Source: Candidatus Gottesmanbacteria bacterium (lineage in GTDB: Bacteria > Patescibacteriota > Microgenomatia > UBA10105 > UBA927). From it: a stretch of DNA of 64,000 nucleotides. The position numbers were made by a program, and so were the translations under genes. Positions within the stretch are counted from its first letter, which is position 1. Each line of letters begins with the position of its first letter. Shown piece after piece: positions 22,739-53,583 of this stretch. The stretch spans positions 135,802-199,801 of the forward strand of contig CAIJMI010000005.1 in the NCBI GenBank assembly GCA_903821745.1, read 5' to 3'. A model generated the notes under the pieces. It saw only the letters and a list, made by a program, of their open reading frames with translations. It was not told the origin of the DNA and ran no database searches.

Positions 22739-22767
22739 ATCATCATTATACGTATTTACAAAAACAA

Positions 22768-24807: not shown

Positions 24808-25319
24808 TTAATACCTGTTGCATCTTTACTCTTACAAGCGGTTGCTCCTGACGTTACGGTATTTTCTACTCCTGACTGATCATATTTTGTTGCTGGATCA
24901 ACCTGGAATGATTTTGAACCTGGCTGATAACACACACGTACTTCCACTGACGACGTTGGAGATGAAGGCAGATAAGTAACAAACACTTTGTCAAGTTGCC
25001 CACTGTAAATCTCTTTAAAATTCGATTTCATTTCTCCTGCTGCCATCATGTTTGATAATGCAGTATTAATTGTTGCTGCACTAAGATTGGTGGAACTGAA
25101 CGTGGTTGTCTGATCTGTCCATGGCATTTTATTTGTTGTTGCGTAATACCGCAACACTGCCGTTTGAACTTGATTGACCAAATCTCGTGTTCCTGTATCT
25201 GTGCCCTTTTTCAATTGTTCAAATGGATCAAGTGCACCAATAAGACCGATAGCGAGAGCTCCTAATAAGGCGATAACGATAAGAAGCTCGACGAGCGTAA
25301 AACCTTTTTGTCTTTTCAT
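24786..25319 (-). CDS. Type IV pilin, candidate major pilin.
   Basis: Leader MKRQKG|FTLVELLIVIALLGALAI. Strongest SD in the locus (GGAGGTGATAACAAT-ATG). Own upstream intergenic region. C-terminal Cys pair (CKSKDATGINCFWC). Confidence 0.75.
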   Translation of the reverse strand: MKRQKGFTLVELLIVIALLGALAIGLIGALDPFEQLKKGTDTGTRDLVNQVQTAVLRYYATTNKMPWTDQTTTFSSTNLSAATINTALSNMMAAGEMKSNFKEIYSGQLDKVFVTYLPSSPTSSVEVRVCYQPGSKSFQVDPATKYDQSGVENTVTSGATACKSKDATGINCFWCVQ

Positions 25320-25398
25320 ATTGTTATCACCTCCTTACAATAAAATCTCTTCTCTTATTACTGTATAAGAACGTCTCTTCAATTGTCAACACAAATAC

Positions 25399-26607: not shown

Positions 26608-26613
26608 ATGAAA

Positions 26614-27669: not shown

Positions 27670-27680
27670 AATTGCTTCTC

Positions 27681-29402
27681 CTAATCCTGCGCAACGCGCA
27701 ACACTTCTTCAATTGATGTTAGGCCTTCCAATGCTTTCATATAGCCATCTTGTTTCATGGTTATCATTCCTTCAGAAATTGCTTGTGTTTCAATATCTTT
27801 CATGGTCGCACGAGACAAAGTCAACCGACTAATGGCATCTGTGACGGCAAATACTTCAAATATACCAAGTCTTCCATGATACCCTGTGCCTGCACAGGTA
27901 GAACAGGACACATCACTAACCGTTCCTTTTCCGCGATACAATTTTATTGGTTTATCTTTTTGAAGCAGGGGTCCCAACACTGCACGGACATCATCTTGTA
28001 TCGGCTGTTCTGGAATATATTCTTCTTTACAGGTTTCGCAAATTTTTCGTGCAATACGTTGACCAACAACTGCGTTAAGTGCCGATGCGATAAGGAATGG
28101 CTCAGCCCCAAGATCTATAAGCCGTGGAATTGCACCTGAGGCGTTATTTGTGTGCAGCGTTGAAAACACCAAATGACCGGTAAGTGCAGCCTGTACAGCC
28201 AGTTCCGTTGTTTCCTGATCCCTAATTTCTCCAACAAGAATAATATTTGGATCCTGACGCAAAAATGATCGTAAACCCGTTGCAAACGTTAATCCTGCTG
28301 GTGCGTTCACTTGGACTTGATTCACCCCTGCAATCTGATACTCAACCGGATCTTCCAGCGTCATTATATTAACCCGAGCATTATTGAGTTTATTCAGCAC
28401 AGAATACAATGTCGTCGTTTTTCCGGAACCAGTTGGTCCGGTCACAAGAATAATGCCGTGTGGCCGGGTAATGGATGTTTCCAAATTTTTTAATGCAAGA
28501 CCGCGAAGCCCAAGTTCCGGCAAGGAGGGAACCCCGCCAGATTTTTTCAAAAGCCGCATAACGATTTTTTCTCCAAACACTGTGGGAAGAGAGGATACAC
28601 GAAGATCAACCTCTTCATCTCCCATTTTAAAATTAAACCGTCCATCCTGTGGAATACGCCGTTCATCAATTTTCATATCGCCTAAAATTTTAATACGCGA
28701 TATGACGGCTTCATGGAGTCGTCTTGGAAGCAAGAGTCGTTCTTGCAAAATCCCATCCACCCGATACCGAACACGCGTTTCCGCATCCTGTGGTTCAATA
28801 TGAACATCTGATGCACGAAGCCGGATTGCCTGCTCAAGAATAGCAGAAACGATTTGTGCAATAGGAGCTTCCCGAATCACTTCATTTAAATGTCCCGCTT
28901 CATAAGTCTTTATATCAGACGGTGCTGTTTCTTTGAGCGCTGCAGTAACATCTTCTCCCAAATGCTGTGTGTACAAATTATTAATTGCCGTAAGTATCTT
29001 TTCTTTTACTGCCATATACGCAGTAATCGTTTTGTTTGTTTTCTTCTCCAAAAAATCAATAATCTGCGCATCGAGTGGATCTGCCATTGCAACTAAGAGC
29101 GTATTCGTCTTAGTATCAAATTCAAACGGCACAAGAATATATTTTCTTGCAACCGCCTCTGGAACATAGGTGATCAATTCCGGAGAAAAAGCGAGGGAGG
29201 AAACGTCAGCAAAGGGAATATTGAGGACTGCTGCCCGCGCACGAAGGATATCTTCTTCTTTTACTAATCGTTTTTGAAGCAGCAATGATTCGACGGATTC
29301 ACCAACATTTAAGGATTGAAGCAGTATTTCATCTGCCTGTTCCTTCGAAAGGTTTTTATTTTGAACCAGCTTATTTAATAATTCTTGGGCAGCGGCAGGC
29401 AT
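27681..29402 (-). CDS. pilB: Type IV pilus assembly ATPase PilB (GspE family).
   Basis: N-terminal GSPII_E_N domain, Walker A GPTGSGKTT, and a tetracysteine motif (CETC...CSTC). Confidence 0.92.
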   Translation of the reverse strand: MPAAAQELLNKLVQNKNLSKEQADEILLQSLNVGESVESLLLQKRLVKEEDILRARAAVLNIPFADVSSLAFSPELITYVPEAVARKYILVPFEFDTKTNTLLVAMADPLDAQIIDFLEKKTNKTITAYMAVKEKILTAINNLYTQHLGEDVTAALKETAPSDIKTYEAGHLNEVIREAPIAQIVSAILEQAIRLRASDVHIEPQDAETRVRYRVDGILQERLLLPRRLHEAVISRIKILGDMKIDERRIPQDGRFNFKMGDEEVDLRVSSLPTVFGEKIVMRLLKKSGGVPSLPELGLRGLALKNLETSITRPHGIILVTGPTGSGKTTTLYSVLNKLNNARVNIMTLEDPVEYQIAGVNQVQVNAPAGLTFATGLRSFLRQDPNIILVGEIRDQETTELAVQAALTGHLVFSTLHTNNASGAIPRLIDLGAEPFLIASALNAVVGQRIARKICETCKEEYIPEQPIQDDVRAVLGPLLQKDKPIKLYRGKGTVSDVSCSTCAGTGYHGRLGIFEVFAVTDAISRLTLSRATMKDIETQAISEGMITMKQDGYMKALEGLTSIEEVLRVAQD

Positions 29403-30230: not shown

Positions 30231-32168
<1,938 letters not shown>

Positions 32169-32236
32169 GGAAAATATTTATATAATAGGAAGGTTCAAAC
32201 AGGAGATATTCGTATAAAAATTTTATAAGGAGAATT

Positions 32237-34261
32237 ATGGATATACAGTTAATTGCTCTTTTCACTGCCCCAGCAACAGCACTTATTGCTCTTATTTATG
32301 GAGCGATGCTCGTCAAACGAACACTCAAGGAAGAAGAGGGGTCAGATAAGTTAAGGCAAATTGGAAAAGCCGTTTCTGACGGAGCAATGGCATATCTTGC
32401 CAAACAATTTAAAGTAGTCATTCCATTCATGGTTATCCTTGGAATCGTCATTGCCCTCACACTCGGCACTGGTATGGCAGCAACGTTTCTTCTTGGCGCC
32501 ACATTTTCAGCCATCATTGGCTACGTTGGTATGTGGGTGGCCGTCAAAGCAAACGTTCGAACTGCAAATGCTGCCATTAAAGGATTAAACCCAGCACTTC
32601 GGGTGGCATTCGGCGCAGGAACCGTCAACGGCATGCTTGTTGTGGGCCTTGGACTATTAGGTGTTTCCATTGTCTACATGTGGTCATACTTTTCATTCAT
32701 TGGACAGGGTGCTGATGCGGTCGCAAAATCTGCAACGAACGTCCTTGTCGGATATGGATTTGGAGCAGCATTATTAGCCCTGTTCATGAGAGTCGGTGGA
32801 GGAATTTTTACAAAAGCTGCTGACGTCGGAGCAGATCTTGTCGGAAAAGTAGAAAAGGGAATTCCTGAAGATGATCCACGAAATCCAGCAACTATTGCTG
32901 ACAACGTCGGAGATAACGTCGGAGACTGTGCTGGTATGGCAGCAGACGTCTTTGAATCCTACGCGTTAACCATCGTTGCTGCTATGATTTTAGGTGGTAA
33001 TTTATTCGGACTTAAAGGGGTGGTATTCCCACTTCTTGCCAGATCCGGAGCAATTTTAACCTCCATTTTAGGATCATTCTTCGTGAAAGCGAAAAATGAC
33101 AAAGAGTATCCAATCAAACCGTTAATCCGAGGATTCATGGTTTCTGCAGTTGCAGCCATCATTATTTTTATGGGACTTGCAACATTCCTGCTTAATGAAC
33201 CACGAGCTGGATATGCAGCCATTATGGGTATCGTAGCAATGGTCGCACTGCTCTTAATCACAAAATTCTATACCGGACCGGGAGAAAAACCAATTGTTGG
33301 TATTGCCCAAGCATCCAGAACTGGTGCAGGAACCAACATTATCGCGGGTCTGGGATACGGAATGGAATCAACATTCGTTTCCGTTTTGGTTGTCGCAGCC
33401 GCCATTTATGCGGGCTATGCAATCTTTGGATTCTACGGTATTTCCCTAGTCGGCATGGGAATGCTGGCAACAACCGGTATTATTATGGCACTTGATACCT
33501 TCGGACCAATTTCTGACAATGCCCAAGGCATGGTCGAAATGGCAGGACTCAAAGGAAAAGCACCAGAAGTAACTGGAAATTTGGATGCCGTTGGAAATAC
33601 GACAAAGGCACTGACAAAAGGATTTGCAGTGGGATCAGCAGCGGTGGCTGCATGTTCCCTGTTTGCAACATATTTTGAAGCAACAGGGCTCACAACAATC
33701 GATATTGCCAATCCAAGAGTCTTTGTAGGAGTTCTGCTTGGAGGAGCACTGCCATTCTTGTTTAGCTCGAGACTCATCAATTCTGTTGGTCGAGCAGCAT
33801 TTGAGGTGGTCGAAGAGGTAAGACGACAATTTAAAGAAATCAAAGGAATCATGGAAGGAAAAGCCCTTCCTGATTATTCCCGCGCCGTTGCCATCGTCAC
33901 AACTGCTGCGCAACGAGAGTTGGTTATCCCAGCACTGATGGTTGTCTCCATGCCAATTGCCGCAGGGCTTCTTGGAGCACAAGCGCTCGGAGGATTTTTA
34001 GGCGGGGTCGTCGTCGTCGGACTTATGCTTGCATTTTTTATGTGCAACACCGGTGGAGCATGGGACAATGCCAAAAAATATGTTGAGGATGGAAATTTTG
34101 GTGGCAAAGGCAGCGACACGCATAAAGCTGCAGTTGTCGGAGACACAGTCGGCGATCCGTTAAAAGATACCGCTGGTCCAGCCTTAAATCCAATGATGAA
34201 AATCGTACAAGTCGTGGCGCTGCTTGTCGCCCCATTTGTCATCCAATTCATTGGGAAATAA
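32237..34261 (+). CDS. hppA: Membrane-bound proton- or sodium-translocating pyrophosphatase.
   Basis: GGIFTKAADVGADLVGKVE, DNVGDNVGDCAGMAADVFESY, DTVGDPLKDTAGPALN and about 16 TM helices. Confidence 0.92.
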   Translation: MDIQLIALFTAPATALIALIYGAMLVKRTLKEEEGSDKLRQIGKAVSDGAMAYLAKQFKVVIPFMVILGIVIALTLGTGMAATFLLGATFSAIIGYVGMWVAVKANVRTANAAIKGLNPALRVAFGAGTVNGMLVVGLGLLGVSIVYMWSYFSFIGQGADAVAKSATNVLVGYGFGAALLALFMRVGGGIFTKAADVGADLVGKVEKGIPEDDPRNPATIADNVGDNVGDCAGMAADVFESYALTIVAAMILGGNLFGLKGVVFPLLARSGAILTSILGSFFVKAKNDKEYPIKPLIRGFMVSAVAAIIIFMGLATFLLNEPRAGYAAIMGIVAMVALLLITKFYTGPGEKPIVGIAQASRTGAGTNIIAGLGYGMESTFVSVLVVAAAIYAGYAIFGFYGISLVGMGMLATTGIIMALDTFGPISDNAQGMVEMAGLKGKAPEVTGNLDAVGNTTKALTKGFAVGSAAVAACSLFATYFEATGLTTIDIANPRVFVGVLLGGALPFLFSSRLINSVGRAAFEVVEEVRRQFKEIKGIMEGKALPDYSRAVAIVTTAAQRELVIPALMVVSMPIAAGLLGAQALGGFLGGVVVVGLMLAFFMCNTGGAWDNAKKYVEDGNFGGKGSDTHKAAVVGDTVGDPLKDTAGPALNPMMKIVQVVALLVAPFVIQFIGK

Positions 34262-34303
34262 CGAAACTCGTACAAATTAGTAACGGTTACGTCGGTAGGT
34301 ATC

Positions 34304-36805
34304 ATGAATATCGGAAAAATTATTCAATCAGAAATCGTGACAGAAATGCAAAAGTCATATCTTGACTATGCTATGTCGGTCATCGTATCCCGCGCCCTTC
34401 CTGATGTTCGTGATGGCATGAAACCAGTGCACCGACGCATTTTGTATGCAATGCACACAACCGGTCTTGCGCATAACGCAAAATATAAAAAAAGTGCATC
34501 GGTGGTCGGAGAAGTGCTGGGAAAATACCATCCACATGGTGATTCTTCCGTGTATGAGGCATTAGTCAGACTTGCACAAGAATTTTCCATGCGGTATCCA
34601 CTCGTTGATGGGCAAGGAAACTTTGGTTCCATTGATGGAGATCCACCAGCAGCCATGCGGTATACCGAGTGTCGGCTTGCTGCAATATCAGGAGAAATGA
34701 TGCTTGATATTGAAAAAGATACCGTGGATTTCTTGCCGAATTTTGATGGATCAACCAAAGAACCAGCATATTTACCAGCAAAATTACCCAATCTTTTGCT
34801 CATGGGATCAGAAGGTATCGCGGTTGGAATGGCAACAAAAATTCCACCGCATAACTTAGGAGAAATCGTGGATGCCCTAGTCCACATGATTGATAAAATT
34901 ACGATCGTGAAAGGAAAAGATAAAAGCCATGATACGCCGGAATATTCCTTCAATAGCACTCTTGATGATCTCATGGAATTTGTGCAGGGCCCGGATTTTC
35001 CAACAGCTGGAGCCATTTATGATATTAATGAAATTAAATCTGCGTATGGAACCGGAAAAGGCAAAATTGTCATGCGCGGTAAGGCAGAGATTGAAGAAAT
35101 TGGGCAGGGAAAATCCGCAATTTCAATAACGGAGCTTCCATATCAGGTCAACAAAGCAAATCTCGTCATGAAGATTGCCGACCTCGTGAAAGATAAAAAA
35201 TTGGACGGCATTTCTGACCTTCGGGATGAATCAGACCGACACGGTATTCGCGTCGTTATTGAACTCAAACGGGATGCACATCCAAAACAGGTATTAAACA
35301 ATTTATACAAATACACTGATCTCCAAACCACATTCCCGGTAAACATGGTAGCCCTCGTTGATAACACACCACAAACCTGTACATTAAAACTGATTCTTGA
35401 AGAATACTTAAAACACCGCCAATTTGTTATCCGCCGAAGAAGCGAATTTGAACTCGCGGAAGCAAAAAAACGGGAACACATTTTGGAAGGATTAAAAATT
35501 GCCGTTGATCATATTGATGAAGTCATCGCCATCATTAAAAAAAGCAAAGATGCGGATGAGGCAAAAACAAAGTTAATGACACGGTTCAAGCTCTCTGAAA
35601 TTCAAGCAACCGCAATTTTGGATATGCAGCTGCGGAAACTTGCAGCCCTTGAACGAGAAAAAATTGAAGATGAACTTGCCATGATTCGGGAAACCATTGC
35701 ATACCTCAATGATCTTCTGGAACACCCAGAAAAAATATTTAAAGTCATCAAAGATGAACTGTTAAAACTCAAAGAAAAATACGGGGATAACCGACGGACA
35801 AAAGTATACAAAAGCAAAGTCGGAGAATTTAGTGAAGAACAGCTCATTCCAAATGAAGACACCATCATAACCATGAGCACCTCAGGATATATTAAACGGG
35901 TTCCGCCAACATCATTCAAAACCCAAGAACGAGGAGGCAAAGGGGTCATCGGTATGACCACAAAAGAAGAAGATGCCATTGATATGGTGGTTTCTGCAAA
36001 AACACACGATAACTTGTTGTTCTTTACGGAAAAAGGGAAAGTCTATCAGGTACGTGCCTGGGACCTCCCAGAGGCCTCCAGACAGTCCAAAGGTCAGGCA
36101 GTTGTCAATGTGATCAACGTTGAATCCGGAGAAAAAGTAACATCCATGTTGACCTACACCTTAGATTCCAAACAACAGAAAGAACAAGGCGTCAAATTCA
36201 TCATCATGGCAACCAAAAAGGGTGTCATCAAAAAAAGCAAACTCACCGAATATGAAAACATCCGAAGAAACGGACTGGTCGCAATAAAACTTGATAGTGG
36301 AGACGAACTAGAATGGGTCAAACTCACAGGCGGCGATGATGAGATTCTATTGGTTACCCATGAAGGAAAATCCATTCGGTTTAATGAAGAAGAAGTTCGA
36401 GGAACCGGTCGAGACACCATGGGAGTTCGAGGAATACTATTAAAAGGCAATGATTATCTCGTCAGTATGGATGTCATCACAAAAGAAAACAAATCCCATG
36501 ATTTCTTAACCATCATGGAAAAAGGCATTGGTAAAAAAACCGCTATTACCGGTTTTCCAAAACAACGCCGTGGTGGACAGGGAGTGAAAGTTGCAGAAGT
36601 AAAGGATAAAACAGGAAAAGTGGTTGTCTCACAAATTGTTCCATCAGAAACAGAATCCATTATTATTACATCCATGAAAGGCCAGGTGGTTAAGCTTCCC
36701 ATTGATTCCATGCCACGGTTAGGTAGAGCAACATCAGGTGTGATTCTTATGCGGTTTACTGATAAAACGGATACTGTCGCCGCTGCCACATGTCTGACAA
36801 AGTAA
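34304..36805 (+). CDS. gyrA: DNA gyrase subunit A.
   Basis: Active-site AAMRYTE (Tyr). QRDR-like region. C-terminal beta-pinwheel repeats with the GyrA box QRRGGQG. Confidence 0.95.
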
Positions 36806-39103: not shown

Positions 39104-39703
39104 ATGGGAAGAAGTAAAGCACAACCGATTCAACAACCCGACGACACAACGTGTGGTCCAAGCGCGCTTAAAATTGCGCTGTCTATTTTCGGTGTTAAGA
39201 AATCCCTAAAAAGTCTTATTGAACTTTGCAAGACAAACAGTAATGGAACATCTACCAAAAATCTCATTCATGCGGCAAACAGTCTAGGATTTTCCTTGTT
39301 GGCTGTTGAATATTCAACGCTTTCACACCTGCAAAGTGCACTAAAATACACACCAAACAACCTTCGAGCCACCATGGTGAGCTATCTTTATGACCTCGAC
39401 GAAAAAGATCAGCCACATCCAGATAGTGGCCATTGGGCAACCGTAGCATCATATCTGCCAAGCAAAAATAGAATCGTTCTTTTGGATAGTGCAACTTCAA
39501 AACGAAAATCCTACAATTGGCAGGATTTTCGGGAACGCTGGTTTGATTTTGACCTCAAGAGGAAAAAGCTCTCAAAAACAGGGAAGAAATTTAAACTCAT
39601 CCGTCATTGGCAGCCGCAACTCATGCTTGTCCTAGCTAAAGATGTAAAACATTTACCAAAATTTGAAACATCAACATCCAAATTATTTGAGGCCATTTCG
39701 TAA
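39104..39703 (+). CDS. Stand-alone C39-like cysteine peptidase domain protein.
   Basis: QQPDDTTCGPSALKIAL matches the C39 catalytic Cys motif (Q..D.CG.A.L), with His in DSGHWATV downstream. Start moved to ATG 39104 with AAGGAA upstream. Confidence 0.5.
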   Translation: MGRSKAQPIQQPDDTTCGPSALKIALSIFGVKKSLKSLIELCKTNSNGTSTKNLIHAANSLGFSLLAVEYSTLSHLQSALKYTPNNLRATMVSYLYDLDEKDQPHPDSGHWATVASYLPSKNRIVLLDSATSKRKSYNWQDFRERWFDFDLKRKKLSKTGKKFKLIRHWQPQLMLVLAKDVKHLPKFETSTSKLFEAIS

Positions 39704-40696
39704 CTTGCCGGCTCTTCTCATACACGACTGAACAATCTTCCACACAAAATCGGCAAATGTCATACCGACCGCCATATAGGAAACGGTCATACCGTAAAGT
39801 GGATGGTCGGATAATCCTGGATTTGCGTTTGCCTCAAGAATCAAAAGTTGGTCTTTGTCATTGAATCGAGCATCAATCCGGGTAAAATCATCAAACTGAA
39901 ATGCAGTAAACGCTACTTTACATATTTTTTCAAAATCATTGAGCTGTTCTTTCGTGAGTTTAGCAAGTGCCATCCCGGACGTATGAAAATCCGGATGATC
40001 TTCATTCCACCGACTCTCATAAGAAAGCATCGCCTGTGTTCCTTGCACTTTATACGTTACTTCTGCCGGAGGCAGCATAATAAGCCCTGTTATATCTTCA
40101 TAGAGTGTAATTTGAAATTCGCGTCCGGAAAGAAACTCTTCTGCAATAATGGGTTGTGTATATGTTATAAGCTGTTCCCGAACCTTTACTATAAGTTCTT
40201 CCGCATTGTTTACTATAGACCCTGATCCCAGTCCCACACTGCAATGTTCCTTTGCAAGCTTCACAATGCACGGGTACGAAAAATCGTTCCGTACCAATTC
40301 ATTTCCAATTTCAAACAATTGCCACTTCGGCGTTGGCAACTGATGGGCACCCATGGTTTGTTTCATGAGTACTTTATCTGCCCCCCTGGCAAATGCATCA
40401 CGGGATGCGCCGGTAAACGGAATGCCAGTTTGAACAAGAACATCCATCGCTTCAATACTTAACGGTAGATCAAGTCCGGTCCAATCAATAATATTGACGA
40501 TACAATCAGCCTGAATTCCCATAATGGTTTTTTCGATGGAATCTTCAGCAACCGCAACTAAGAATGCGTCCGCACCTTTTTCCTTCAGCGCTTCTTCCAC
40601 TTCATGGGCGGACTCAACAGTATCATCATCCGTTGCAATAAATTTACTTTCTGTTGCGCGTTTTGTTGGAAGACTGAATAAGACTGCAATTTTCAT
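39683..40696 (-). CDS. ddl: D-alanine--D-alanine ligase (ATP-grasp).
   Basis: KIAVLF N-terminus. ATP-grasp motifs CIVKLAKEHCSVGLG and LEANANPGL. Confidence 0.85.
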   Translation of the reverse strand: MKIAVLFSLPTKRATESKFIATDDDTVESAHEVEEALKEKGADAFLVAVAEDSIEKTIMGIQADCIVNIIDWTGLDLPLSIEAMDVLVQTGIPFTGASRDAFARGADKVLMKQTMGAHQLPTPKWQLFEIGNELVRNDFSYPCIVKLAKEHCSVGLGSGSIVNNAEELIVKVREQLITYTQPIIAEEFLSGREFQITLYEDITGLIMLPPAEVTYKVQGTQAMLSYESRWNEDHPDFHTSGMALAKLTKEQLNDFEKICKVAFTAFQFDDFTRIDARFNDKDQLLILEANANPGLSDHPLYGMTVSYMAVGMTFADFVWKIVQSCMRRAGKLRNGLK

Positions 40697-40701: not shown

Positions 40702-41736
40702 TTAATGTCTGTGAAACCGCTCATGAATTGACCGAAGTTGTGGATTAGTAATGTGGGTATATATTTGCGTTGTTGAGATATTTTTGTGTCCTAACATCTC
40801 CTGAATAGCACGAAGATCAGCTCCTGCAGACAACAGATCCGTCGCAAAACTGTGCCGCAGTCCATGTGGTGTAATCTTAATCGGCAGCCGTGCTTTCTTG
40901 ACATATTTTTCAACCAACCGTTCAACGCTTCGGGCAGAAAGCCTGATACTTTCACCATGTGGATCATGCTCGTCCGGCTTCTTTCCAGAATACCTTATAA
41001 ATAAAGGATCCAAATCATCATCACGCGTTTCCAAATACCGTTTTGTCCAATCAACCGATGAGTCAGATAAAAAGACAACCCGGGCCCGTCGGCCCTTTCC
41101 AATAACGCCAAATTCCTTTCGTTCCAGATTAATCTGATCTCGATTAAGCTTCGTAAGTTCTGAAACACGGAGCCCTGTTGAAAACAACATTTCAAGAATT
41201 GCTTTGTCCCGAAGTCCTTCATTGGTAGAAATTTCCGGCATATTCAACAGTTGTTCCACCTGATCCCGTTCCAAGAATTTGATGCTTCTGCTTTCTGCCT
41301 TTGGGAGGTCAATTTTATCTGCAGACACTGTGCCAACATCTCGTTTTGCGCAATATTTGAGGAATGATCGGACAGCGATCAGATGGTAATTCTGCGTCAC
41401 GCGTTTGAGACTCATATTATGCTCATCCACGTATCTCGACAAAAACAACCGATATTGTCGGATTGACTCGGATGTAACTGCAGAAACCGGAATTGTTTTT
41501 CGTTTGTCCGATTGTTCTTTTACTGCTTCCTCCGATTTTTTATCTATCAAAAGGGGAGTCCCAACAAGATAATCCAAAAACCGGTTCAAATAATGACCAT
41601 AGTTACGGATTGTCAGCGGTGAAACATTCCGCTCAATTTCTAAATATTCTAAAAATTCATTAATAAGTTGTGTAAGCGGCATAGTAATATACGACGTCTT
41701 TACAATTATTGTTGTACGACGTCTGACAAAAAGCAA
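40702..41736 (-). CDS. Xer-like tyrosine site-specific recombinase.
   Basis: N-terminal SAM-like core-binding domain. Catalytic residues R (GLRVSEL)...K...HGLRHSFAT...RAIQEMLGH...Y (TQIYTH). The start may be the internal Met at 41682. Confidence 0.88.
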   Translation of the reverse strand: MLFVRRRTTIIVKTSYITMPLTQLINEFLEYLEIERNVSPLTIRNYGHYLNRFLDYLVGTPLLIDKKSEEAVKEQSDKRKTIPVSAVTSESIRQYRLFLSRYVDEHNMSLKRVTQNYHLIAVRSFLKYCAKRDVGTVSADKIDLPKAESRSIKFLERDQVEQLLNMPEISTNEGLRDKAILEMLFSTGLRVSELTKLNRDQINLERKEFGVIGKGRRARVVFLSDSSVDWTKRYLETRDDDLDPLFIRYSGKKPDEHDPHGESIRLSARSVERLVEKYVKKARLPIKITPHGLRHSFATDLLSAGADLRAIQEMLGHKNISTTQIYTHITNPQLRSIHERFHRH

Positions 41737-42576
41737 TATATCAAATCACGGTACGTATATATTCATTATGATTTCTATACTATTTTGTATTTCCATTGAG
41801 TACTAGTTTTAGCTCTTTCGCATCGTTACAGACGACCATGGTATGCTGACAACAATAGGCACGTTTTTACGTTGTACCCATCACCATTGAAGAAGATAAA
41901 CACCCGCTAAAGGAAGCTATTTTTGAGCCTCTGTAGTGACCTAGAAATTGAATATCCTTGGTGCAATAAGTGTTAGGTCATCAACTTTTGATTTAGCGCG
42001 TCCAAACCGCACATTTCACGCAATATATATAGAGATTTCACAAAATACGGGCAGGGAAGTCAAATACCAAAAATAGCCTCAACGGCCAACCAAGGGAAAT
42101 ACCGTATATGTTTACCTAAACAATGGGTAATTGTTGTTTTGAAATAGAAATAAAAATAAGAAAACATTGATGACAAACAATGGGGATAAAATACCACTTC
42201 TCCCAAGTTCTGAAGCTACCGGACGTCGTAAAAGTATTATTGTGCGTCATTAGCCATTATGCTTCCCACCATGGGTTATCCATCAAAAACGCCAGGTATC
42301 GTTAACCAACTAACATAGACCTTGGGTCTATGGAGATATCCTGTGGTTCTTCCTAAACCTCCGGATACCTCTCAACGAACCCATAAGAACTTTCTTTAAG
42401 AAACCCTAGGTGTAATATCCAGAGAAGAACAAGACCTCTCTCTTTTGTAAGATGCTCACTTCCTAACACGGTCATACGTCTTATTCGTCCTCGAGATAAG
42501 CGTCAACAAACGGTAGAAAAACGTGCACTCCTTAGACACTGACATAAGAACCTCGTTCGGGTTTTTTATAGTTTAC

Positions 42577-43060
42577 AGTTAGCGCGTATTAATGCGCTAA
42601 ACTGTTAATTTCGAGGCTAAATGTTTTTATATTTAACAACACGGATAACAAGAGAAATAGAGCGTCAGAATGCGCTGTCTTTAAGCTTTCGAGGCCACTT
42701 TCACCCCCTAGGGAGATACACGCCTAAAACAAAGAATTGAACGTCGGAATATGTTTTATTTAGCGCGTAATAACGCTCCAAATACACATTTTCGAAGCTA
42801 AATACAACAAATATCGCATGTCTTACAAAGAGAGAGTTGGAGCGTTAATACGTGCTAAACGTAGTAATTCAAGGCTACCGTAATACGAATTGAGTACAAT
42901 TATTAGCAGTCAGCAATCAAGAGCTGATAGTATAGGCCTATTTAGAGCGTATTAATGCGCTAAACTGTTAATATCGAGGCTAAAAACAGAATACTCTGAC
43001 GCTATCGAGAGTAGAGGTTTAGAGCGTACTGATGCTCTATATAAGCAATTCTGAAGCTGC
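42577..43060. repeat. Diverged higher-order tandem repeat. Six ~41-nt units (R1 42577-42621, R2 42659-42698, R3 42758-42803, R4 42839-42879, R5 42941-42984, R6 43018-43060). Degenerate remnants continue to ~43185.
   Basis: Consensus TTTAGAGCGTATTAATGCGCTAAACTGTTAATATCGAGGCTAAA. R1 and R5 are near-identical; the others are about 60-75 percent identical. Spacers alternate ~37 and ~65 nt, so odd and even units each recur every 180-182 bp. Confidence 0.75.
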
Positions 43061-43136
43061 ACGCTACGCGAGATTGAAGCTACTTGAAGCTATATAAGAG
43101 CAGCGTGAAAAGTATCTTATAGTATCGTGAAATTAA

Positions 43137-43145
43137 TTATCCACA
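43137..43145 (+). promoter_or_regulatory. Perfect DnaA-box nonamer TTATCCACA.
   Basis: Exact match to the consensus DnaA box. A 7/9 match (TTATCCATC) lies at 42276-42284. Confidence 0.3.
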
Positions 43146-43224
43146 TCAACTATAGGATACATGCCTTTCGAAGCTAACAACTATATCAAACTATATCATG
43201 CCCCTCTTCCCTATCTCCCGCCAT

Positions 43225-44073
43225 TTAGATACCACGCCATCTGGTTGTAAACAATGCTGCAATAAAAACAAAAATGCAAACAAGGAAAAATCCGATCACT
43301 GTTTTTTTATACAACTTATTTGCTAAGTATTCCTGTCCCATCCCGACCGTGCTGTAAAAGACTGAGGACATTAACAAGGCAATCATGGCAGTGGGCACCG
43401 GCCAGAACGATAACACCCAAGCAAGCTCTCCCAACACAACAGATAAGGCAATGCTCATTGCAATAATTCGCCTACTCACCTGCCCCGTTAATTCCATAAG
43501 CCAGAGTGACGGAAAAATATGCAAGAAACTTAATCCGGAAATAATAATGGTCGTTCCAACAGGATATGCACGAAATGATATGACCGTCAGGGTCAGGAGA
43601 TAAAACGTAAAAATCGTCAAAAGAAAACCAACGGATCTGGCAGCCCGAAGTAAGGCAATAGTCCTATTTGCTGCAACATTATAAATATTTTCTGTCAGTA
43701 AAAATGCATAGAGACCGATTGCATATAATGCAGCAATTGGAATACGGGTTAACCACCGTGGGGGTAAAAGAAAATAAAACAAGGCAACTGCTGCGCTATA
43801 TAAAGTTGGTGGAATAAGGAGTGTCATCCACTCTATTCCTCCTAAATCTTCTCGAAGAGCAAATGCCGCACCAAGGTACGTCATAGCTGCAAGAAGGACA
43901 ACCATTGGATAACGAACAACATCAACTGGTGCAAGTTGGGTAAGCATGAGGCCAAGCGTTAAAACAAAGGTAACTAAAACAAACTGCTGCCGCTTCGTAA
44001 GTTGTATGTGGCGTTCCCATCGTTTCCATCGCTTTTCGATCCAAACTAAAAATTTATGGATTGCTGTTTTCAT
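43225..44073 (-). CDS. Polytopic membrane protein, hypothetical.
   Basis: About 8 TM helices. No motif recognised. Confidence 0.5.
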   Translation of the reverse strand: MKTAIHKFLVWIEKRWKRWERHIQLTKRQQFVLVTFVLTLGLMLTQLAPVDVVRYPMVVLLAAMTYLGAAFALREDLGGIEWMTLLIPPTLYSAAVALFYFLLPPRWLTRIPIAALYAIGLYAFLLTENIYNVAANRTIALLRAARSVGFLLTIFTFYLLTLTVISFRAYPVGTTIIISGLSFLHIFPSLWLMELTGQVSRRIIAMSIALSVVLGELAWVLSFWPVPTAMIALLMSSVFYSTVGMGQEYLANKLYKKTVIGFFLVCIFVFIAALFTTRWRGI

Positions 44074-44076
44074 ATA

Positions 44077-44829
44077 TTATGCAAGGTTTGAGTACACTTC
44101 CTGTACATCATCAAGATCTTCTAATCGTTCGAGAACTTCACTCACTATATCATGTTTTTCACTGGTCAGTTCAACCGTGGTCATAGGAATCATGACAAGT
44201 CTTGCAGCATCACTTGCGATCCCTTTTTCATCAAACACTTTTTTTATTTTAAAAAGATCTGTTGGCTTTGTATATACTTCAATCATGTCCGCAGTTTCCA
44301 AAACATCCAGTGCTCCTACATCAACCGCGACCCCAAACACCGAATCAAAGCTCGCACTTCCAACAGGAATAGTAATAACCCCTTTCCGTTCAAACAAATA
44401 AGAAACTGCACCAGGTGTTGCCATCGATCCCCCTGCATGGTCAAGAATTTGTTTAATAAAGGAAACTGTTCGATTTCCATTATCTGTTGCACCTTCGATA
44501 AATATAGCAACACCAAAGGGAGCATACCCCTCATAGGTAACGGTCATAATGGCATTTCCACCCTCCCCTTTTGCCTTATCTATAATCCGTTCAATATTTT
44601 CCTTCGGCATGTTCACCGCACGCGCTTTTTCAATTGCCAGACGAAGATGAAAATTATCATCGGGATTCGTAATTCCTCCCCCTTCCTTAACCGCAACGAG
44701 GATAGCTCGGGATGCTTGGGTAAAATGAGCGGCTTTTACAACGTCAGTTGTTGCCTTTTGATGTTTCACTTTTGACCACTTAGAATGTCCGGACATAGCG
44801 TGTTCATATTCTATCTTCTCTATTGACAA
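44077..44829 (-). CDS. YebC/PmpR-family DNA-binding transcriptional regulator.
   Basis: N-terminal GHSKWSKVKHQK signature of the YebC family. Confidence 0.9.
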   Translation of the reverse strand: MSIEKIEYEHAMSGHSKWSKVKHQKATTDVVKAAHFTQASRAILVAVKEGGGITNPDDNFHLRLAIEKARAVNMPKENIERIIDKAKGEGGNAIMTVTYEGYAPFGVAIFIEGATDNGNRTVSFIKQILDHAGGSMATPGAVSYLFERKGVITIPVGSASFDSVFGVAVDVGALDVLETADMIEVYTKPTDLFKIKKVFDEKGIASDAARLVMIPMTTVELTSEKHDIVSEVLERLEDLDDVQEVYSNLA

Positions 44830-45568: not shown

Positions 45569-46528
45569 TTATTTTTCAGGCAAAAACCGTCGTTCTATAC
45601 CCTTCCCTAACCGAACAACCAAATCAGCCCGTTCCCGTGTTTGCCGTTCAACAAGTGAACAACCAAACTGAGAACGAAAAAAATTAGCAGTCAGAGATGC
45701 TATCTGTGGTTTCATTCCGGACACTTCGCAAAGCCCTTCATACGGATTATCATCATTACCAACGGAAACCACAAAGCCGCCACTAAGTTCAATTTCGCGG
45801 GCAATCCGTTGCGCTATCCCTGGCGTTCCTGTAGTGTTGTAGAGAGCTATGCGCATGCCCTCCTGACGAAGTGGTGTATCTTCTAAATTATTCCCTACAA
45901 TAGCATCATACTTTTCGCTGTCAAACCGCCATACGGATGTTTGGTCTGGAAGTTCAAATGCTCCTGCAATCTGCCCCTGACGAAAATCAAAAACCGTCGT
46001 CTTGTCAAAACCCATGATTTGAAATTTTTTCCAAACATATGGAACATCTCCAAGAGGAATATTCGTTTTTCCAGTCAACACCATGTGGAGACAATTTGAA
46101 AATGAAAATATTCCTTTTAATTGAAAAACAATCTCGTCTGACGATCCGGTCCAATTACTAAACGTATTTGCACTATGCCATTGGATTGGTGTTGCAAGCG
46201 CATCTTCAAGTGACGACCGAAATAGAATCCCTTTTCGAGCATCCATGCTATCAAGTTTCCATAACGCATCAAGCCCATACCATCCATATCCTTTGATGGC
46301 ATTAATCTGCATGGTTTCTGGAAGGATGAAAACGGCAAAGCGTTGACGTTCAGATTCCCATGAGACAACGATTGTTGGGTTACCAGGAAGCACCAAACCA
46401 AGGCGCCCCCGCGGGGGTTTGGAAGAAAAAAGGAAAAAACAACTACCCAAAAGAAACAGGGCAGTAATACAAAAAATCAAAACGCGAGATCCCCCACGTT
46501 TTTTCCTCCAATCTTGCCGATTCACCAT
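45569..46528 (-). CDS. Membrane-anchored protein with a C-terminal LytR_C-like domain.
   Basis: N-terminal TM. The C-terminal block RIALYNTTGTPGIAQRIAREIELSGGFVVSVGND resembles the LytR_C domain. Confidence 0.5.
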   Translation of the reverse strand: MVNRQDWRKKRGGSRVLIFCITALFLLGSCFFLFSSKPPRGRLGLVLPGNPTIVVSWESERQRFAVFILPETMQINAIKGYGWYGLDALWKLDSMDARKGILFRSSLEDALATPIQWHSANTFSNWTGSSDEIVFQLKGIFSFSNCLHMVLTGKTNIPLGDVPYVWKKFQIMGFDKTTVFDFRQGQIAGAFELPDQTSVWRFDSEKYDAIVGNNLEDTPLRQEGMRIALYNTTGTPGIAQRIAREIELSGGFVVSVGNDDNPYEGLCEVSGMKPQIASLTANFFRSQFGCSLVERQTRERADLVVRLGKGIERRFLPEK

Positions 46529-46665
46529 TCTTTTTTTCCTTTTTTGATAATTTCAACTTGTGGTAATTGCCATGGACTGTTTCCCATCTGGCGCATTGCT
46601 TTCTTTTCAAGCTCTGATTTTTTTATCTTTTTCTTTTCATGTGTACGAAAATCACTGGAACCCAT
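46522..46665 (-). CDS. Small Lys-rich protein (47 aa), translationally coupled to the downstream LytR_C gene.
   Basis: ATG at 46665 preceded by AGGAGGAG with 6-nt spacing. Its TGA overlaps the ATG of the 45569..46528 gene (ATGGTGA). Below the ORF-track length cutoff. Confidence 0.35.
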   Translation of the reverse strand: MGSSDFRTHEKKKIKKSELEKKAMRQMGNSPWQLPQVEIIKKGKKEW

Positions 46666-51617: not shown

Positions 51618-52091
51618 ATGATGGCTACCGCTCACACCTTGGTTGCAGGCGCAATCGCTGCAAAAGTCGGAAATCCCAGCCTCGCCCTGCCACTCGCCCT
51701 CACCTCGCATTTTATCCTTGATAGCATTCCACACTGGGATTTTGGAACCAGTTGGCGAAAACGAACGAAATTTGCAACGGGCGCATTTGCAATAGTCGAT
51801 ACCGTCATCGGCATTTCCCTTACCTGGTTTATGTTTGCACCCAAAGTTACCCCACTACTTCTTGCGAGCTGTTTGATGCTTTCCGTTATACCAGATTGGA
51901 TGGAAGCGCCTTGGTATATCTTTTTTGCAGATCCGAAACACAAAGGACCCAAAAAAAACGCGGGTCTGTTTGAAAAAGTATTTTACGGAGTCTACAAATG
52001 TACAAATAAAGCACATACAAAAGCACCATTTCCTTGGGGACTTATCTCACAAATTGCAACCGTTACATTTTTTTTGCTTGTGCTTCAATAA
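51618..52091 (+). CDS. Hypothetical membrane protein.
   Basis: Four predicted TM helices. No motif recognised. Confidence 0.4.
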   Translation: MMATAHTLVAGAIAAKVGNPSLALPLALTSHFILDSIPHWDFGTSWRKRTKFATGAFAIVDTVIGISLTWFMFAPKVTPLLLASCLMLSVIPDWMEAPWYIFFADPKHKGPKKNAGLFEKVFYGVYKCTNKAHTKAPFPWGLISQIATVTFFLLVLQ

Positions 52092-53583
52092 AGGATAAGA
52101 TTGTCCGAACACCAAATCCTGTGCCACCATACCGTGTCAATGCTGTTTCTTTTTCCGCAAATGCTGGTCCTGCAATATCAATATGTGCCCATGGCATATG
52201 TTCATTCACGAATTCTTTCAAAAATAATGCACCCGTTATTGCACCCCCATAATGTACTTTTGAAACATTTGCAATATCTGCAATCGGGCTTTTTAAATCT
52301 TTCTCATATGCTGTTGCAATCGGCATTCTCCATAACTTTTCCCCTGCAATTAGACCGGCCGCAAGGATTCCCTGAGCCAGGGCAGTATCATCAGAAAATA
52401 CACCAGCAATATCCTCGCCAAGCGCAACCACACACGCTCCGGTGAGCGTTGCAAGGTCGATAATACAGTCGGATATAATATATTTTTCCGCATACGATAG
52501 TGCATCAGCCAAGATAAGTCTACCTTCTGCATCGGTATTTAACACTTCAATGGTTTTTCCATTCATTGCCCGGACAACATCTCCTGGCTTCATTGCGTGT
52601 CCGCTGGGCATATTTTCACACGCAGCAATCAATCCGACAACGTTAATTTTTGGTTTAAGCGATGCGAGTGCCTCAAAAACACCGAGAATTGCGGCGGCTC
52701 CCGCCATATCACACTTCATCGTTTCCATACTTGAAGAAGGTTTGATGGACAATCCACCCGAATCATACGTAATGCCTTTTCCTACCAAACAAATCGTTTT
52801 CTTTCCCCCGCCGTGATAGGAAAGTTTGATAAACTTTGGTTCTTCGTTGGATCCTCTGGAAACACCAAGCAACGAACCCATACCGAATTTCGTTATTTCT
52901 TTTTTACCAAATACCCTACACATGATTGTTTTTTGTTTTGCAAGAGATTTTGCAGCACGTGCAAGTGCAGACGGTGTCATCACAGAAGACGGTTCATTGA
53001 CGAGATCACGCGCAAATATCGTTCCTGAAGCACGATTTGATCCGTCAATAATCCCCTTCATGGTTTCGGTCACCTGAGATGCTGATACGACAACCGTCAC
53101 AATTGCAATATCTTTTTCTTTTTCCTGAATTTTTTTACTTTTATACGGCAAAAATGCATAGGAACCGAATCCGACTGCTTCCGTCAATAAGCGTGCCGTC
53201 AAAAATGAAGTAAAACGCTCTAAAATTTCCTTAGGAAGAGAAAGTACAACAGATGCCGCATGGCTTTGTTTTGCACGTACTATTGAAGCAGCAACAGCGG
53301 ATTGAAAATCAAATGCCGTCATCTCCTGGAGCCTGCCACATCCGACAATAATCACCCGCGTATACGGAAGCATACCATGTGACTGCACGACAAATATTGC
53401 ACCAACTGTCGGTTCAAAGTCTTCTGACTTCAATAACTTCTTCACTTCCCCTTTCAGTCGTTCATCAACATATGCACTATCCGAAAAATAAACGGGAGAT
53501 GAATTTGTATCAGATCCAACAAACACGACAAGCGTGTCAGCAGCAACTGAAAACAAGGATTTCGCGGTGGTATAGAATTTCAT
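52063..53583 (-). CDS. pepA: Leucyl aminopeptidase (M17 family).
   Basis: M17 signature NTDAEGRL (VLNTDAEGRLILADAL) and metal-ligand context. Confidence 0.9.
   Translation of the reverse strand: MKFYTTAKSLFSVAADTLVVFVGSDTNSSPVYFSDSAYVDERLKGEVKKLLKSEDFEPTVGAIFVVQSHGMLPYTRVIIVGCGRLQEMTAFDFQSAVAASIVRAKQSHAASVVLSLPKEILERFTSFLTARLLTEAVGFGSYAFLPYKSKKIQEKEKDIAIVTVVVSASQVTETMKGIIDGSNRASGTIFARDLVNEPSSVMTPSALARAAKSLAKQKTIMCRVFGKKEITKFGMGSLLGVSRGSNEEPKFIKLSYHGGGKKTICLVGKGITYDSGGLSIKPSSSMETMKCDMAGAAAILGVFEALASLKPKINVVGLIAACENMPSGHAMKPGDVVRAMNGKTIEVLNTDAEGRLILADALSYAEKYIISDCIIDLATLTGACVVALGEDIAGVFSDDTALAQGILAAGLIAGEKLWRMPIATAYEKDLKSPIADIANVSKVHYGGAITGALFLKEFVNEHMPWAHIDIAGPAFAEKETALTRYGGTGFGVRTILSFIEAQAKKM

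Follow-up and report, generated by a model that had tools for sequence, protein, structure and literature searches.

What is the role of a 1.5-kb stretch of DNA that has no substantial open reading frame (ORF) and lies among tightly packed genes? The question is posed by positions 41737-43224 (1,488 bp) of the DNA analyzed here, a 64-kb stretch that we call the window. This gap, as first noted, separates the gene for a Xer-like recombinase (xer) from a gene for a DUF5656 protein. A first-pass annotation held that it represents either a structured non-coding RNA or a cis-acting DNA locus. We favor, with moderate confidence and from comparative sequence evidence, the reading that it is a cis-acting Xer/dif-type DNA region of the adjacent recombinase, in a bacterium of the Microgenomates (candidate phyla radiation), with an unusually long accessory part.

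The gap and its neighbors

The interval and the genes around it are the following.

39683-40696, minus strand: Ddl, the gene downstream of xer
40702-41682, minus strand: Xer-like tyrosine recombinase of 326 aa (Pfam Phage_integrase and SAM-like N-terminal domain)
41683-43224, no strand assigned: whole non-coding interval from the DUF5656 stop to the xer ATG, 1,542 bp
43225-44073, minus strand: DUF5656, the gene upstream of the gap
44077-44829, minus strand: YebC, the gene upstream of DUF5656

The first-pass annotation described an ORF-free island of 1.5 kb within a gene-dense run, flanked by genes that are all on the minus strand, and both observations hold. The longest ORF in 41737-43224 is 48 aa, none reaches 60 aa in any frame, and annotators call no gene within the gap on identical contigs. 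The gap is 7.6 times larger than the runner-up among the spacers of the window, which is 195 bp long with a tRNA-Leu inside, and the median spacer is 8 bp. Ddl, xer, DUF5656 and YebC are on the minus strand throughout. By itself, the absence of an ORF of at least 60 aa from 1.5 kb of this composition is not improbable: when sequences of the gap's length and composition were shuffled, 23% had no such ORF, and the longest ORF was at most 48 aa in 3.9%. The gap is significant because its neighbors are gene-dense and because it is kept in relatives, and not because of the ORF statistic. We also considered hidden small proteins or a pseudogene and rejected them after a tblastn search in which 758 ORFs, taken from the corresponding region in relatives, served as queries and the sole notable match was an ORF of the relative L004 that is frameshifted here.

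The extent of the non-coding DNA depends on where xer begins. The longest xer ORF starts at a TTG and encodes 344 aa, and an ATG at 41682 gives 326 aa. We place the start at this ATG, as gene callers do on identical contigs and as the conservation of the N-terminus indicates, and the non-coding interval therefore spans 41683-43224.

Comparison of the gap with relatives L004 and L005 reveals 64-68% identity across about 1,365 nt. More broadly, the order YebC, DUF5656, at least 1 kb of non-coding DNA and xer is repeated in about 70 Microgenomates species, and the same gene order is present in all 80 of the metagenome contigs examined. A synteny comparison, which the first-pass annotation had proposed, thus finds the gap conserved in relatives, so that it is not a recent insertion. 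The accompanying claim that the gap is not slack is borne out by the repetition of the gap and its motifs in about 70 species, and judging from this sequence evidence the gap is a conserved DNA control region.

The Xer-like recombinase

The best NCBIfam matches of the Xer protein are XerC (236 bits), XerD (230 bits) and XerA, all of them under the equivalog cut-offs, and the XerS equivalog, which demands 267 bits, reaches 129. All catalytic residues are there, namely R (in GLRVSE), K (GKG), HxxR (HGLRH), H (LGH) and Y (IYTH), and the nearest solved structures are those of Pyrococcus abyssi XerA and Escherichia coli XerD. A "Cand" subgroup among Xer-like recombinases has already been described (PMC8138268). 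The 64-kb window has no xer paralogue, and this recombinase gene probably belongs with the sites of the gap that are described below.

A 28-bp dif-type core site

The most conserved element of the gap is a 28-bp palindrome, ATGTCGCACAA-TAATAC-TTTTGCGACAT, in which 10/11 arm positions are symmetric.

42223-42250, minus strand: dif-type core ATGACGCACAA-TAATAC-TTTTACGACGT, with 11-bp inverted arms and a 6-bp center

This core site is about 540 bp upstream of xer and has one match in the 64-kb window, where the chance expectation is 0. It is present in 64/80 species loci when searched by pattern and in 68/80 by profile. There is one copy per 13-kb locus, in constant orientation and always upstream of xer. 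At least 120 metagenome contigs carry the site, again with one copy per contig, and in the 80 of these that were examined DUF5656 is upstream and xer is downstream wherever the contig extends there. The distance from core to xer ranges from 0.25 to 5.5 kb among the contigs that hold both, the core being upstream in every one. The site is intergenic in every locus, and the genes that separate it from xer vary by lineage. No second copy that might delimit an invertible or excisable segment was found in the loci, even with up to 5 mismatches allowed, and a search of phage contigs gave 0 matches.

In an unbiased species set, the core arms are near-invariant, with about 2 bits per position, and the center is lineage-dependent. 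One arm position is non-complementary throughout, and the variable arm position differs independently between the two sides, a pattern that suits a protein site with distinguishable arms and not a hairpin. Because the arms are nearly symmetric, they suggest that a single recombinase acts on the site. The core consensus is identical to the dif sites of E. coli and Bacillus subtilis at 14-15 of 28 positions (P about 0.002-0.013), with composition-matched shuffles averaging 7.7-8.2. Notable stretches of agreement are CGCAYAA (left arm) and TT.TG...A.AT (right arm).

Two species, L012 and L044, have no core site. Each has two Xer-like genes, the second of which occupies the same place as the missing site and is immediately preceded, before its ATG, by a perfect 11-6-11 palindrome of its own. 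Both loci keep the accessory motifs upstream of the replaced module.

The xer promoter

A second palindrome with a related arm is found near the start of xer.

41693-41723, minus strand: palindrome GACGTCGTACAA-CAATAA-TTGTAAAGACGTC, read from the sequence, 11-41 nt upstream of the xer ATG

In its left arm this palindrome carries the dif-arm motif, which overlaps the xer promoter at the -10 region. The motif GTCGYAnAWT is found at most 130 nt upstream of xer in 51/79 loci (median position -38), and 30 of those 51 have a TTGACA-like -35 element 15-19 nt before the YAnAWT hexamer. The first-pass annotation had argued that the gap is not a divergent promoter region; this is correct, but the gap does include the promoter of xer itself. 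The promoter palindrome is probably an operator for Xer, and since the arm motif overlaps the xer -10 box, autoregulation of xer through its own arm motif is suggested. Alternatively, the shared arm motif could be bound by a dedicated repressor instead of Xer. The promoter palindrome and the core site probably do not recombine with each other, because their 6-bp centers differ.

Accessory motifs around the core site

The remainder of the gap is rich in short repeated motifs.

41913-41947, minus strand: conserved block TTTCTAGGTCACTACAGAGGCTCAAAAATAGCTTC, found in 11 loci by iterated nhmmer
42074-42080, plus strand: TAGCCTC box in reverse orientation, downstream of the core site
42212-42218, minus strand: TAGCTTC box, adjoining the right arm of the core
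42553-42567, minus strand: motif AAAAAACCCGAACGA, a variant of the CGAAAAAAAWNCGAA of other lineages, invariant in a three-way alignment
42579-43061, minus strand: six 43-bp repeats, each with a TTAGCCTCRAAA box, 7 nt and an inverted repeat TTTAG-N14-CTAAA
43076-43092, minus strand: two TAGCTTC boxes in tandem with a 10-bp period
43104-43133, minus strand: direct repeat TTTCACG-N14-TTTTCACG, conserved in block A
43137-43145, plus strand: perfect DnaA box TTATCCACA (TGTGGATAA on the minus strand), read from the sequence
43170-43176, minus strand: TAGCTTC box
43179-43198, minus strand: tandem TGATATAGT-T-TGATATAGT, beginning about 25 nt past the DUF5656 stop

The accessory motifs are strongly and specifically enriched near the core site. 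The 43-bp repeats, whose box can also be written TAGCCTCAAAA, lie upstream of the core and alternate between spacings of 78 and 103 bp, forming three 181-bp units. They are 60-95% alike and are absent elsewhere in the window; such repeats are likewise confined to the equivalent intergenic region, in the same orientation, in about 30 loci. The half-sites of their inverted repeats change together within a genome, and not unit by unit.

Closer to the DUF5656 gene, TGATATAGT is present in 53/69 loci, with 69/70 copies sharing the same orientation, and each copy resembles an extended -10 element. TTTCACG is found in 61/69 loci, and its pair is located 230-1000 nt upstream of the core in about 50 loci. 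The DnaA box appears once and in constant orientation in 42/69 loci, at a density of 0.49/kb inside the region versus 0.01/kb outside. Levybacteria-type loci carry the motif of 42553-42567 as CGAAAAAAATACGAA. On the xer side, the block TTTCTAGGTCACTACAGAGGCTCAAAAATAGCTTC is directly 3′ of a variable extra gene in other lineages. Gottesmanbacteria-type loci repeat the reversed box copy at +167 to +390, and a box located 30-48 nt from the start of a 24-nt core is repeated in 13 loci. The core site itself is often trailed by a short GGAGAAG hairpin with a T-run. Between lineages, the orientation of the TAGCCTC box flips and the modules are rearranged, and the stretch between array and core (the 300 nt next to the core) is poorly conserved.

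We tried two other descriptions of these repeats and rejected both. In the window, as in L004 and L005, inverted TTTCACG pairs stand at either end of 42013-43135 and might be taken for terminal inverted repeats, but other loci have no downstream pair. A CRISPR array is equally unsuitable, given that the repeats are only 60-95% alike, that the "spacers" are conserved between species and that no cas gene is among the identified flanking genes.

Position relative to the replication terminus

Single-Xer modules sit at the replication terminus, and for this reason an inversion of skew would be expected at the core. We examined whole-sequence skew, GC3 skew by gene strand, breakpoint regression, a set of 54 loci and a 10-kb leftward extension, and a skew-defined terminus was rejected, as every test left the sign unchanged. 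In this genome, skew at third codon positions (GC3) does not change sign across the core, for 51 kb one way and 22 kb the other, and it is also without inversion in 54 other species within about 5 kb. The core is therefore not a classical terminus dif and is located away from the skew-defined terminus, the usual seat of bacterial dif. The dif site of Legionella can be as far as 79 kb from the skew inflection (PMC9765430), and a terminus farther away is compatible with the skew of the window.

Alternative explanations

Of the two possibilities offered by the first-pass annotation, the cis-acting DNA locus is upheld by the core site, the xer promoter with its putative operator and the motif arrays. 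The structured RNA, which would be either a transcript of roughly 1 kb or a series of tandem 181-nt RNAs running from TGATATAGT toward xer, with the palindromes as hairpins, appears unlikely. It would be favored by the extended -10-like character of TGATATAGT and its conservation right after the DUF5656 stop, by the hairpin and T-run that often follow the core, and by G.T wobbles that could preserve a hairpin of this strand in some Levybacteria-type units. Given the first two of these features, the region may be transcribed. The array is also more stable than its shuffles (z -6.2), but the opposite strand is equally stable (z -5.9), and such equal folding of both strands is as expected of DNA palindromes. 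There is no covariation: in both palindrome classes the Watson-Crick fractions equal the expectation if the halves vary independently, and a left half pairs with its own right half at 2.24/5 positions versus 2.31/5 with the right half of another unit in the same locus. The flipping boxes and reshuffled modules noted above likewise speak against an RNA, as do the poorly conserved 300 nt by the core, which fold no better than shuffles (z -1.8 and -0.7). The Rfam search that the first-pass annotation had recommended matched no family. Over the gap, Rfam 15 gave chance-level matches only, both at the gathering threshold and at E≤10, and ARAGORN detected no tmRNA. It is also quite improbable that the gap consists of degenerate coding DNA, left over from a gene or integrated element that once occupied the slot between core and xer. 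This slot elsewhere holds genes for AP-endonuclease-like, PMT, acyltransferase and GH18 proteins, L004 has a 117-aa ORF in it whose counterpart in the window is frameshifted, and breaks at 41960 and 41991 are seen in two assemblies of the same population. However, decay could cover only about 41730-42220 and not the 1 kb upstream, tblastn matched none of the lineage-specific genes, and the L004 ORF begins in the core-consensus ATG and has an amino acid identity (71%) no higher than its nucleotide identity.

The arrangement of the xer promoter raises the prospect that the arm motif is an operator for another transcription factor, acting on xer and the neighboring promoter, in which case the 28-bp palindrome would be regulatory and no recombination would occur. 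The overlap of the motif with the xer -10 box and the position of the core away from any skew inversion are consistent with this scenario. Nevertheless, we assign it a slim chance, since the 11-6-11 organization with conserved arms and a freer center is the architecture of a tyrosine-recombinase core, and since in some lineages as much as 5.5 kb, with unrelated genes in it, separates the core from xer. Moreover, the second Xer-like gene described above comes with its own 11-6-11 palindrome, and no conserved regulator gene adjoins the core. Very improbable, in our estimation, is a DnaA-related element, that is, an origin or a titrating or reactivating locus like E. coli datA or DARS, with the repeats serving as initiator or accessory sites. 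The conserved perfect box with its fixed orientation, the direct repeats and A+T-rich stretches close by, and the presence of gyrB, gyrA and dnaB inside the same window would fit such an element. In opposition to this, the gap and most loci have a single box and no cluster, dnaA and dnaN are not neighbors, and the lack of GC3 skew inversion here and in the 54 other species excludes a bidirectional origin. A DnaA-related element would also leave unexplained the dif-type site and its repetition in the xer promoter.

Discussion

If the gap is indeed a Xer/dif-type region, then its parts could operate in the following manner. Xer would bind the arm motif at its promoter, which in this genome is a full palindrome, and repress its own transcription. 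Two Xer monomers would bind the 28-bp core, and two cores, located on a chromosome dimer or on a mobile element, would form a synapse with strand exchange across the center. Beyond the core, as seen from xer, the roughly 1 kb of accessory DNA would be bound by at least one further protein. Like the accessory sequences of cer and psi, such proteins might control synapsis or the direction in which recombination proceeds. Alternatively, these proteins may organize the chromosome around the core, as does the DNA flanking dif in Thermococcus.

A more speculative proposal, to which we attach only a low probability, is that Microgenomates carry out dimer resolution or another essential Xer reaction away from the terminus. 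The accessory array, in which polar TAGCCTCA boxes point toward the core, would then replace guidance by FtsK and KOPS, and the locus would also act as a docking or cargo slot for mobile DNA.

Xer/dif systems are near-universal devices of genome maintenance. Full-text literature searches on Xer, dif and chromosome dimers in Patescibacteria and the candidate phyla radiation gave us no description of the Xer target site of these organisms. If our interpretation is true, the target site would be known for a large uncultured lineage, and the recombinase promoter would be built from the target motif of the recombinase itself. There would also be a bacterial dif-type site that is off the skew-defined terminus and is accompanied by a kilobase of conserved accessory DNA, an arrangement nearer to the surroundings of archaeal dif. 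In practical terms, the 28-bp sequence would serve as a marker of integrated elements in such genomes.

Comparison with known systems

The core resembles the classical dif of XerC/XerD in length, arm and center architecture, non-coding position and part of its sequence. Unlike classical dif, it has near-symmetric arms, is tightly linked to xer and is not at a GC-skew inversion. Linkage of dif to a xer gene is known from the XerS and XerH modules (PMC5357621). As with XerS/difSL of streptococci and lactococci and XerH/difH of Helicobacter and Campylobacter, a near-symmetric core is found in non-coding DNA upstream of one linked Xer gene (PMC5357621, PMC1914069). In those systems the two act as a module, and here the linkage of gene and site is strict. 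However, the protein belongs to neither family (129 bits for XerS versus the required 267), and the center of the core is 6 bp versus 11 bp in difSL. Moreover, difSL and difH are located at the terminus and depend on FtsK, whereas the skew around the present core keeps its sign for tens of kb. Conserved accessory motifs over about 1 kb, and a further arm motif that overlaps the promoter, likewise set this region apart from the two known modules.

Accessory DNA on one side of a Xer core is known from cer and psi, where it binds other proteins and makes recombination FtsK-independent and selective for resolution (PMC5357621). The region described here is similar in having non-coding accessory DNA on one side of the core, but that of cer and psi is about 160-200 bp long, adjoins the core and binds PepA together with ArgR or ArcA. 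The main array of the present region is 330-840 bp from the core, the accessory DNA spans about 0.5-1 kb, the motifs match no named ones and the site is chromosomal. In addition, one TAGCTTC box adjoins the other core arm. The window includes a Peptidase_M17 (PepA-type) gene at 52063-53583, which is a housekeeping gene and no evidence for likeness to cer and psi.

The archaeal system shares with this region a 28-bp site of 11-6-11 organization, and XerA is the closest solved structure. Archaeal dif sites match bacterial dif at 14-18 of 28 positions (PMC2958812), and the 14-15 matches found here are at the low end of that range. In haloarchaea and crenarchaea dif is near xerA, and in Sulfolobus dimer resolution at dif is unlinked from replication termination (PMC3020120). 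The dif of Thermococcus kodakarensis ("boundary 1") is located in a 1.9-kb intergenic region, in which a nucleoid protein binds the DNA other than dif and this DNA acts as a boundary for SMC (PMC11840125). Unlike these examples, the present region belongs to a bacterium, whereas TrmBL2 is archaeal, and its flanking motifs are discrete, oriented and repeated.

A conserved noncoding interval upstream of xer

The first-pass annotation singled out 41737-43224 as an exceptional gap among tight spacers, free of ORFs of 60 aa or more and flanked only by minus-strand genes. These observations stand: the longest ORF is 48 aa, and the gap is 7.6 times the size of the next largest spacer in the window (195 bp, containing a tRNA-Leu gene; median spacer 8 bp). 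Taken by itself the ORF statistic carries little weight, because 23% of shuffled versions of the gap also lack an ORF of at least 60 aa. One boundary does require revision. The 344-aa xer ORF opens with TTG, and gene calls on identical public contigs, together with the conserved N-terminus MPLTQLINEFLEYLE, place the xer start at an ATG at 41682; the true noncoding interval is therefore 41683-43224 (1,542 bp). The locus is organized as follows.

39683-40696, minus: D-Ala-D-Ala ligase-like gene
ATG at 41682, minus: Phage_integrase/Xer-like gene (xer)
41693-41723: promoter palindrome GACGTCGTACAA-CAATAA-TTGTAAAGACGTC
42223-42250, minus: core site ATGACGCACAA-TAATAC-TTTTACGACGT, the sole match in the 64-kb window (none expected by chance)
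42579-43061: six 43-bp repeats between the core site and block A, with spacing alternating between 78 and 103 bp
43104-43133: TTTCACG-N14-TTTTCACG, in block A
43137-43145: perfect DnaA-box sequence TGTGGATAA (also written TTATCCACA), in block A
43179-43198: TGATATAGT-T-TGATATAGT, in block A
43225-44073, minus: DUF5656 membrane protein gene
44077-44829, minus: YebC gene

Several public metagenome contigs carry sequence identical to the window. DUF5656 and the nearest Xer relatives assign the window to the Microgenomates group (candidate phyla radiation): Xer shares 87% identity with its counterpart in a Microgenomates MAG and 60-78% with those of Gottesmanbacteria. The order TPR, YebC, DUF5656, noncoding stretch, xer is kept in about 70 of 80 species-representative genomes, with at least 1 kb of noncoding sequence and sometimes one lineage-specific extra gene before xer. 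The gap aligns over ~1,365 nt with the equivalent loci L004 (68%) and L005 (64%), and dozens of loci match it in shorter blocks. The gap is therefore not slack, in line with the first-pass annotation, and it is not a recent insertion, which its absence from close relatives would have indicated.

The extra genes, unrelated between lineages, occupy a slot between the core site and xer (L009 5250-5948, L011 5045-6016, L006 4381-5601, L045 4742-5749 and L078 4377-5903). They encode an AP-endonuclease-like TIM barrel, a PMT-type glycosyltransferase, an acyltransferase, a GH18 chitinase-like protein and, in L009, a protein with no Pfam match; the window carries none of them. This slot behaves like a cargo position flanked by two Xer-motif sites. 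Two independent assemblies of one population match the window at 100% right up to where they stop, within the gap: contig k141_260813 (177.8 kb), coming from the left, at 41960, and scaffold_158 (73 kb), coming from the right, at 41991. Their 32-bp overlap has no further copy in the window, and these breaks, 230-260 bp beyond the core site, suggest strain-level structural variation.

A probable dif-type core site and its putative recombinase

Iterated profile searches of the 80 loci, seeded with the best-conserved block, recovered that block in 68, without exception ahead of xer and on the same strand as the gene. The consensus at its heart, ATGTCGCACAA-TAATAC-TTTTGCGACAT, comprises a 6-bp center between two 11-bp inverted arms, symmetric at 10 of 11 arm positions. 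Its architecture is that of a dif-type tyrosine-recombinase core site. It is present once per locus in fixed orientation, and across an unbiased species set the arms are near-invariant while the center takes about 10 forms. An exact-pattern scan of metagenome contigs gave at least 120 matches; all 80 contigs examined among these carry a single site, with DUF5656 upstream and xer 0.25-5.5 kb downstream on every contig long enough to include them. At the variable arm position, C/T in the left arm and G/A in the right, the two sides vary independently (complementary at a frequency of 0.56, versus 0.50 expected), and one arm position is never complementary. This pattern is consistent with a protein site whose arms are distinguishable, and inconsistent with a hairpin.

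The consensus is identical at 14-15 of 28 positions to the established dif sequences of E. coli and B. subtilis (composition-matched shuffles ~8; P ~0.002-0.013). For archaeal dif sites validated by experiment, 14-18 of 28 has been reported (PMC2958812), and the present match falls at the bottom of that range. The recombinase retains all catalytic residues. Its top models are XerC, XerD and XerA, with scores under every equivalog cut-off; among solved structures, P. abyssi XerA and E. coli XerD come closest.

Upstream of the xer start, most loci carry TTGACA, 15-18 nt and ATGTCG-YAYAAT, and thus the -10 hexamer of xer is supplied by the core-site arm motif. In 51 of 79 loci GTCGYAnAWT occurs no more than 130 nt before the xer start (median -38), and 30 of the 51 have a correctly spaced TTGACA-like -35 element. 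In the window, L004, L005, L007 and L011 a full palindrome includes the arm motif. Most simply read, Xer would bind its own promoter. The promoter palindrome and the core site probably do not recombine together, because their centers differ.

The putative accessory kilobase

Block A, directly after the DUF5656 stop codon, was found in 42-50 loci. In the 1.3 kb before the core site every one of its motifs is enriched, by 10- to 80-fold, and nearly always has one orientation, with an order that varies by lineage. Of 69 related loci, 42 have the DnaA-box sequence, as one copy in fixed orientation.

Each 43-bp repeat consists of a TTAGCCTCRAAA box, 7 nt and the inverted repeat TTTAG-N14-CTAAA. The rest of the window has no copies, the repeats are confined to this intergenic region in about 30 loci, and L004 and L005 share the 78/103-bp pattern. 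The gap holds 9 of the window's 16 TAGCYTC matches, and over 69 loci the box shows 10-25 times enrichment between -1000 and +400 relative to the core site. Gottesmanbacteria-type loci have every upstream copy facing the core site and a single reversed copy 170-390 nt past it; Levybacteria-type loci have mixed orientations and palindromic pairs. In the window, L004 and L005, ATTTCACG-N14-ATTTCAC (42013-42047) and its inverted counterpart (43104-43133) enclose ~1.1 kb containing the repeat array and core site. Terminal inverted repeats were considered for these pairs and rejected, as the downstream pair is missing from other loci.

DNA or RNA

Of the two possibilities originally raised, a structured RNA or a cis-acting DNA locus, the core site and oriented motifs favor the latter, and nothing supports the former. 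An Rfam search of the gap gave no family match. The Watson-Crick fraction observed in the inverted repeats is the one predicted for halves that vary independently. Among 158 distinct units the inner half-site type differs by lineage (GAGCG/CGCTC versus GATTGA/TCAATC), and a left half is complementary to its own right half at 2.24 of 5 positions, versus 2.31 for the right half of another unit in the same locus; this is a concerted shift of recognition sequence and not compensation one hairpin at a time. Both strands of the array fold more stably than shuffles, and equally so (z -6.2 and -5.9), and the poorly conserved 330 nt adjoining the core site are no more stable than their shuffles (z -1.8 and -0.7). 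Conserved small-protein genes, which would have counted against the original reading, are likewise not indicated: no coding signal was found in the gap, and the sole ORF common to a relative begins in the site-consensus ATG and is frameshifted in the window. Transcription of the gap is nevertheless conceivable, as TGATATAGT looks like an extended -10 element.

Module replacement and matching arms on a phage contig

Two species with complete flanks, represented by L012 and L044, lack the core site, and a second Xer-like gene occupies its position after the same upstream motifs (L012 3352-4929; L044 4654-5700). Its product shares 34% identity with the main Xer; between the two species the second genes' products match at 72%. 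Upstream lie TTGACA-17-TATAAT and a perfect 11-6-11 palindrome, ATCGAGTATAA-TAWCCC-TTATACTCGAT, abutting the ATG. Two unrelated 11-6-11 palindromes, each with its own xer-like gene, share one chromosomal slot, an arrangement which argues that each palindrome is the cognate site of its recombinase. In L012, a 178-aa ORF follows the second gene.

Palindrome arms (11 bp) identical to those of L012 and L044 also occur between the terminase genes of a phage contig (L209 8850-8945; IMG/VR UViG_3300002460_000953) that codes for portal, large and small terminase and capsid. They adjoin a TAGCCTCA box and an arm motif resembling the xer promoter. The fragment has no recombinase gene, and the element may be a phage attachment site that exploits a host Xer.

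Chromosomal position

Modules of the XerS and XerH types are located at the terminus (PMC5357621), and the same location, expected here, is contradicted by the skew data. Cumulative GC skew is monotonic over the whole window. Third-codon GC skew, in plus-strand terms, is negative on both sides of the site for genes of either orientation, and remains so 9 kb further left on a larger contig. In 54 other species the sign is also the same on both flanks (+0.21 and +0.18 for plus- and minus-strand genes on one, +0.14 and +0.17 on the other). In a genome of ~1 Mb, the nearest switch therefore lies beyond 51 kb on one side and beyond 22 kb on the other. The lack of an inversion excludes a bidirectional origin, the DnaA box notwithstanding. 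A terminus farther away than the skew range covered is still conceivable: in Legionella as much as 79 kb separates dif from the inflection (PMC9765430). In Sulfolobus dimer resolution is unlinked to termination (PMC3020120).

The surroundings are an ordinary chromosomal context for these bacteria, with RecG at 11904-13952, a minus-strand type IV pilus gene run at 16428-29402 (PilM, two T2SSE ATPases, T2SSF) and gyrB, H+-PPase and gyrA at 30240-36805. On identical public contigs a 47-aa gene without family assignment is called at 46522-46665, between TGT and a LytR_C gene.

Proposed function and relation to known systems

The gap is probably, although by no means securely, a cis-acting Xer/dif-type locus with a long accessory region. 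Xer dimers would bind the 28-bp site and the promoter palindrome, the latter providing autoregulation. In a dimeric chromosome, two copies of the site would synapse and exchange strands across TAATAC. The upstream arrays would be bound by at least one further protein; YebC, a conserved neighbor, and DnaA, for which there is a candidate box, are guesses. By analogy with the accessory sequences of cer and psi, array-bound proteins might give resolution selectivity or FtsK-independent activation. Alternatively, they might form a nucleoprotein structure organizing the chromosome around the site; in T. kodakarensis, a 1.9-kb intergenic region with dif makes an SMC boundary via its non-dif DNA (PMC11840125).

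A "Cand" subgroup of Xer-like recombinases has been recorded from candidate phyla (PMC8138268), and the literature searched contained no description of the site of such enzymes. The recombinase belongs to neither the XerS nor the XerH family, and by its skew the core site lacks the terminus location of classical dif. In function, the closest likeness is to single-recombinase xer-dif modules, and archaeal XerA/dif resembles the locus in protein similarity, site similarity and a large functional intergenic setting.
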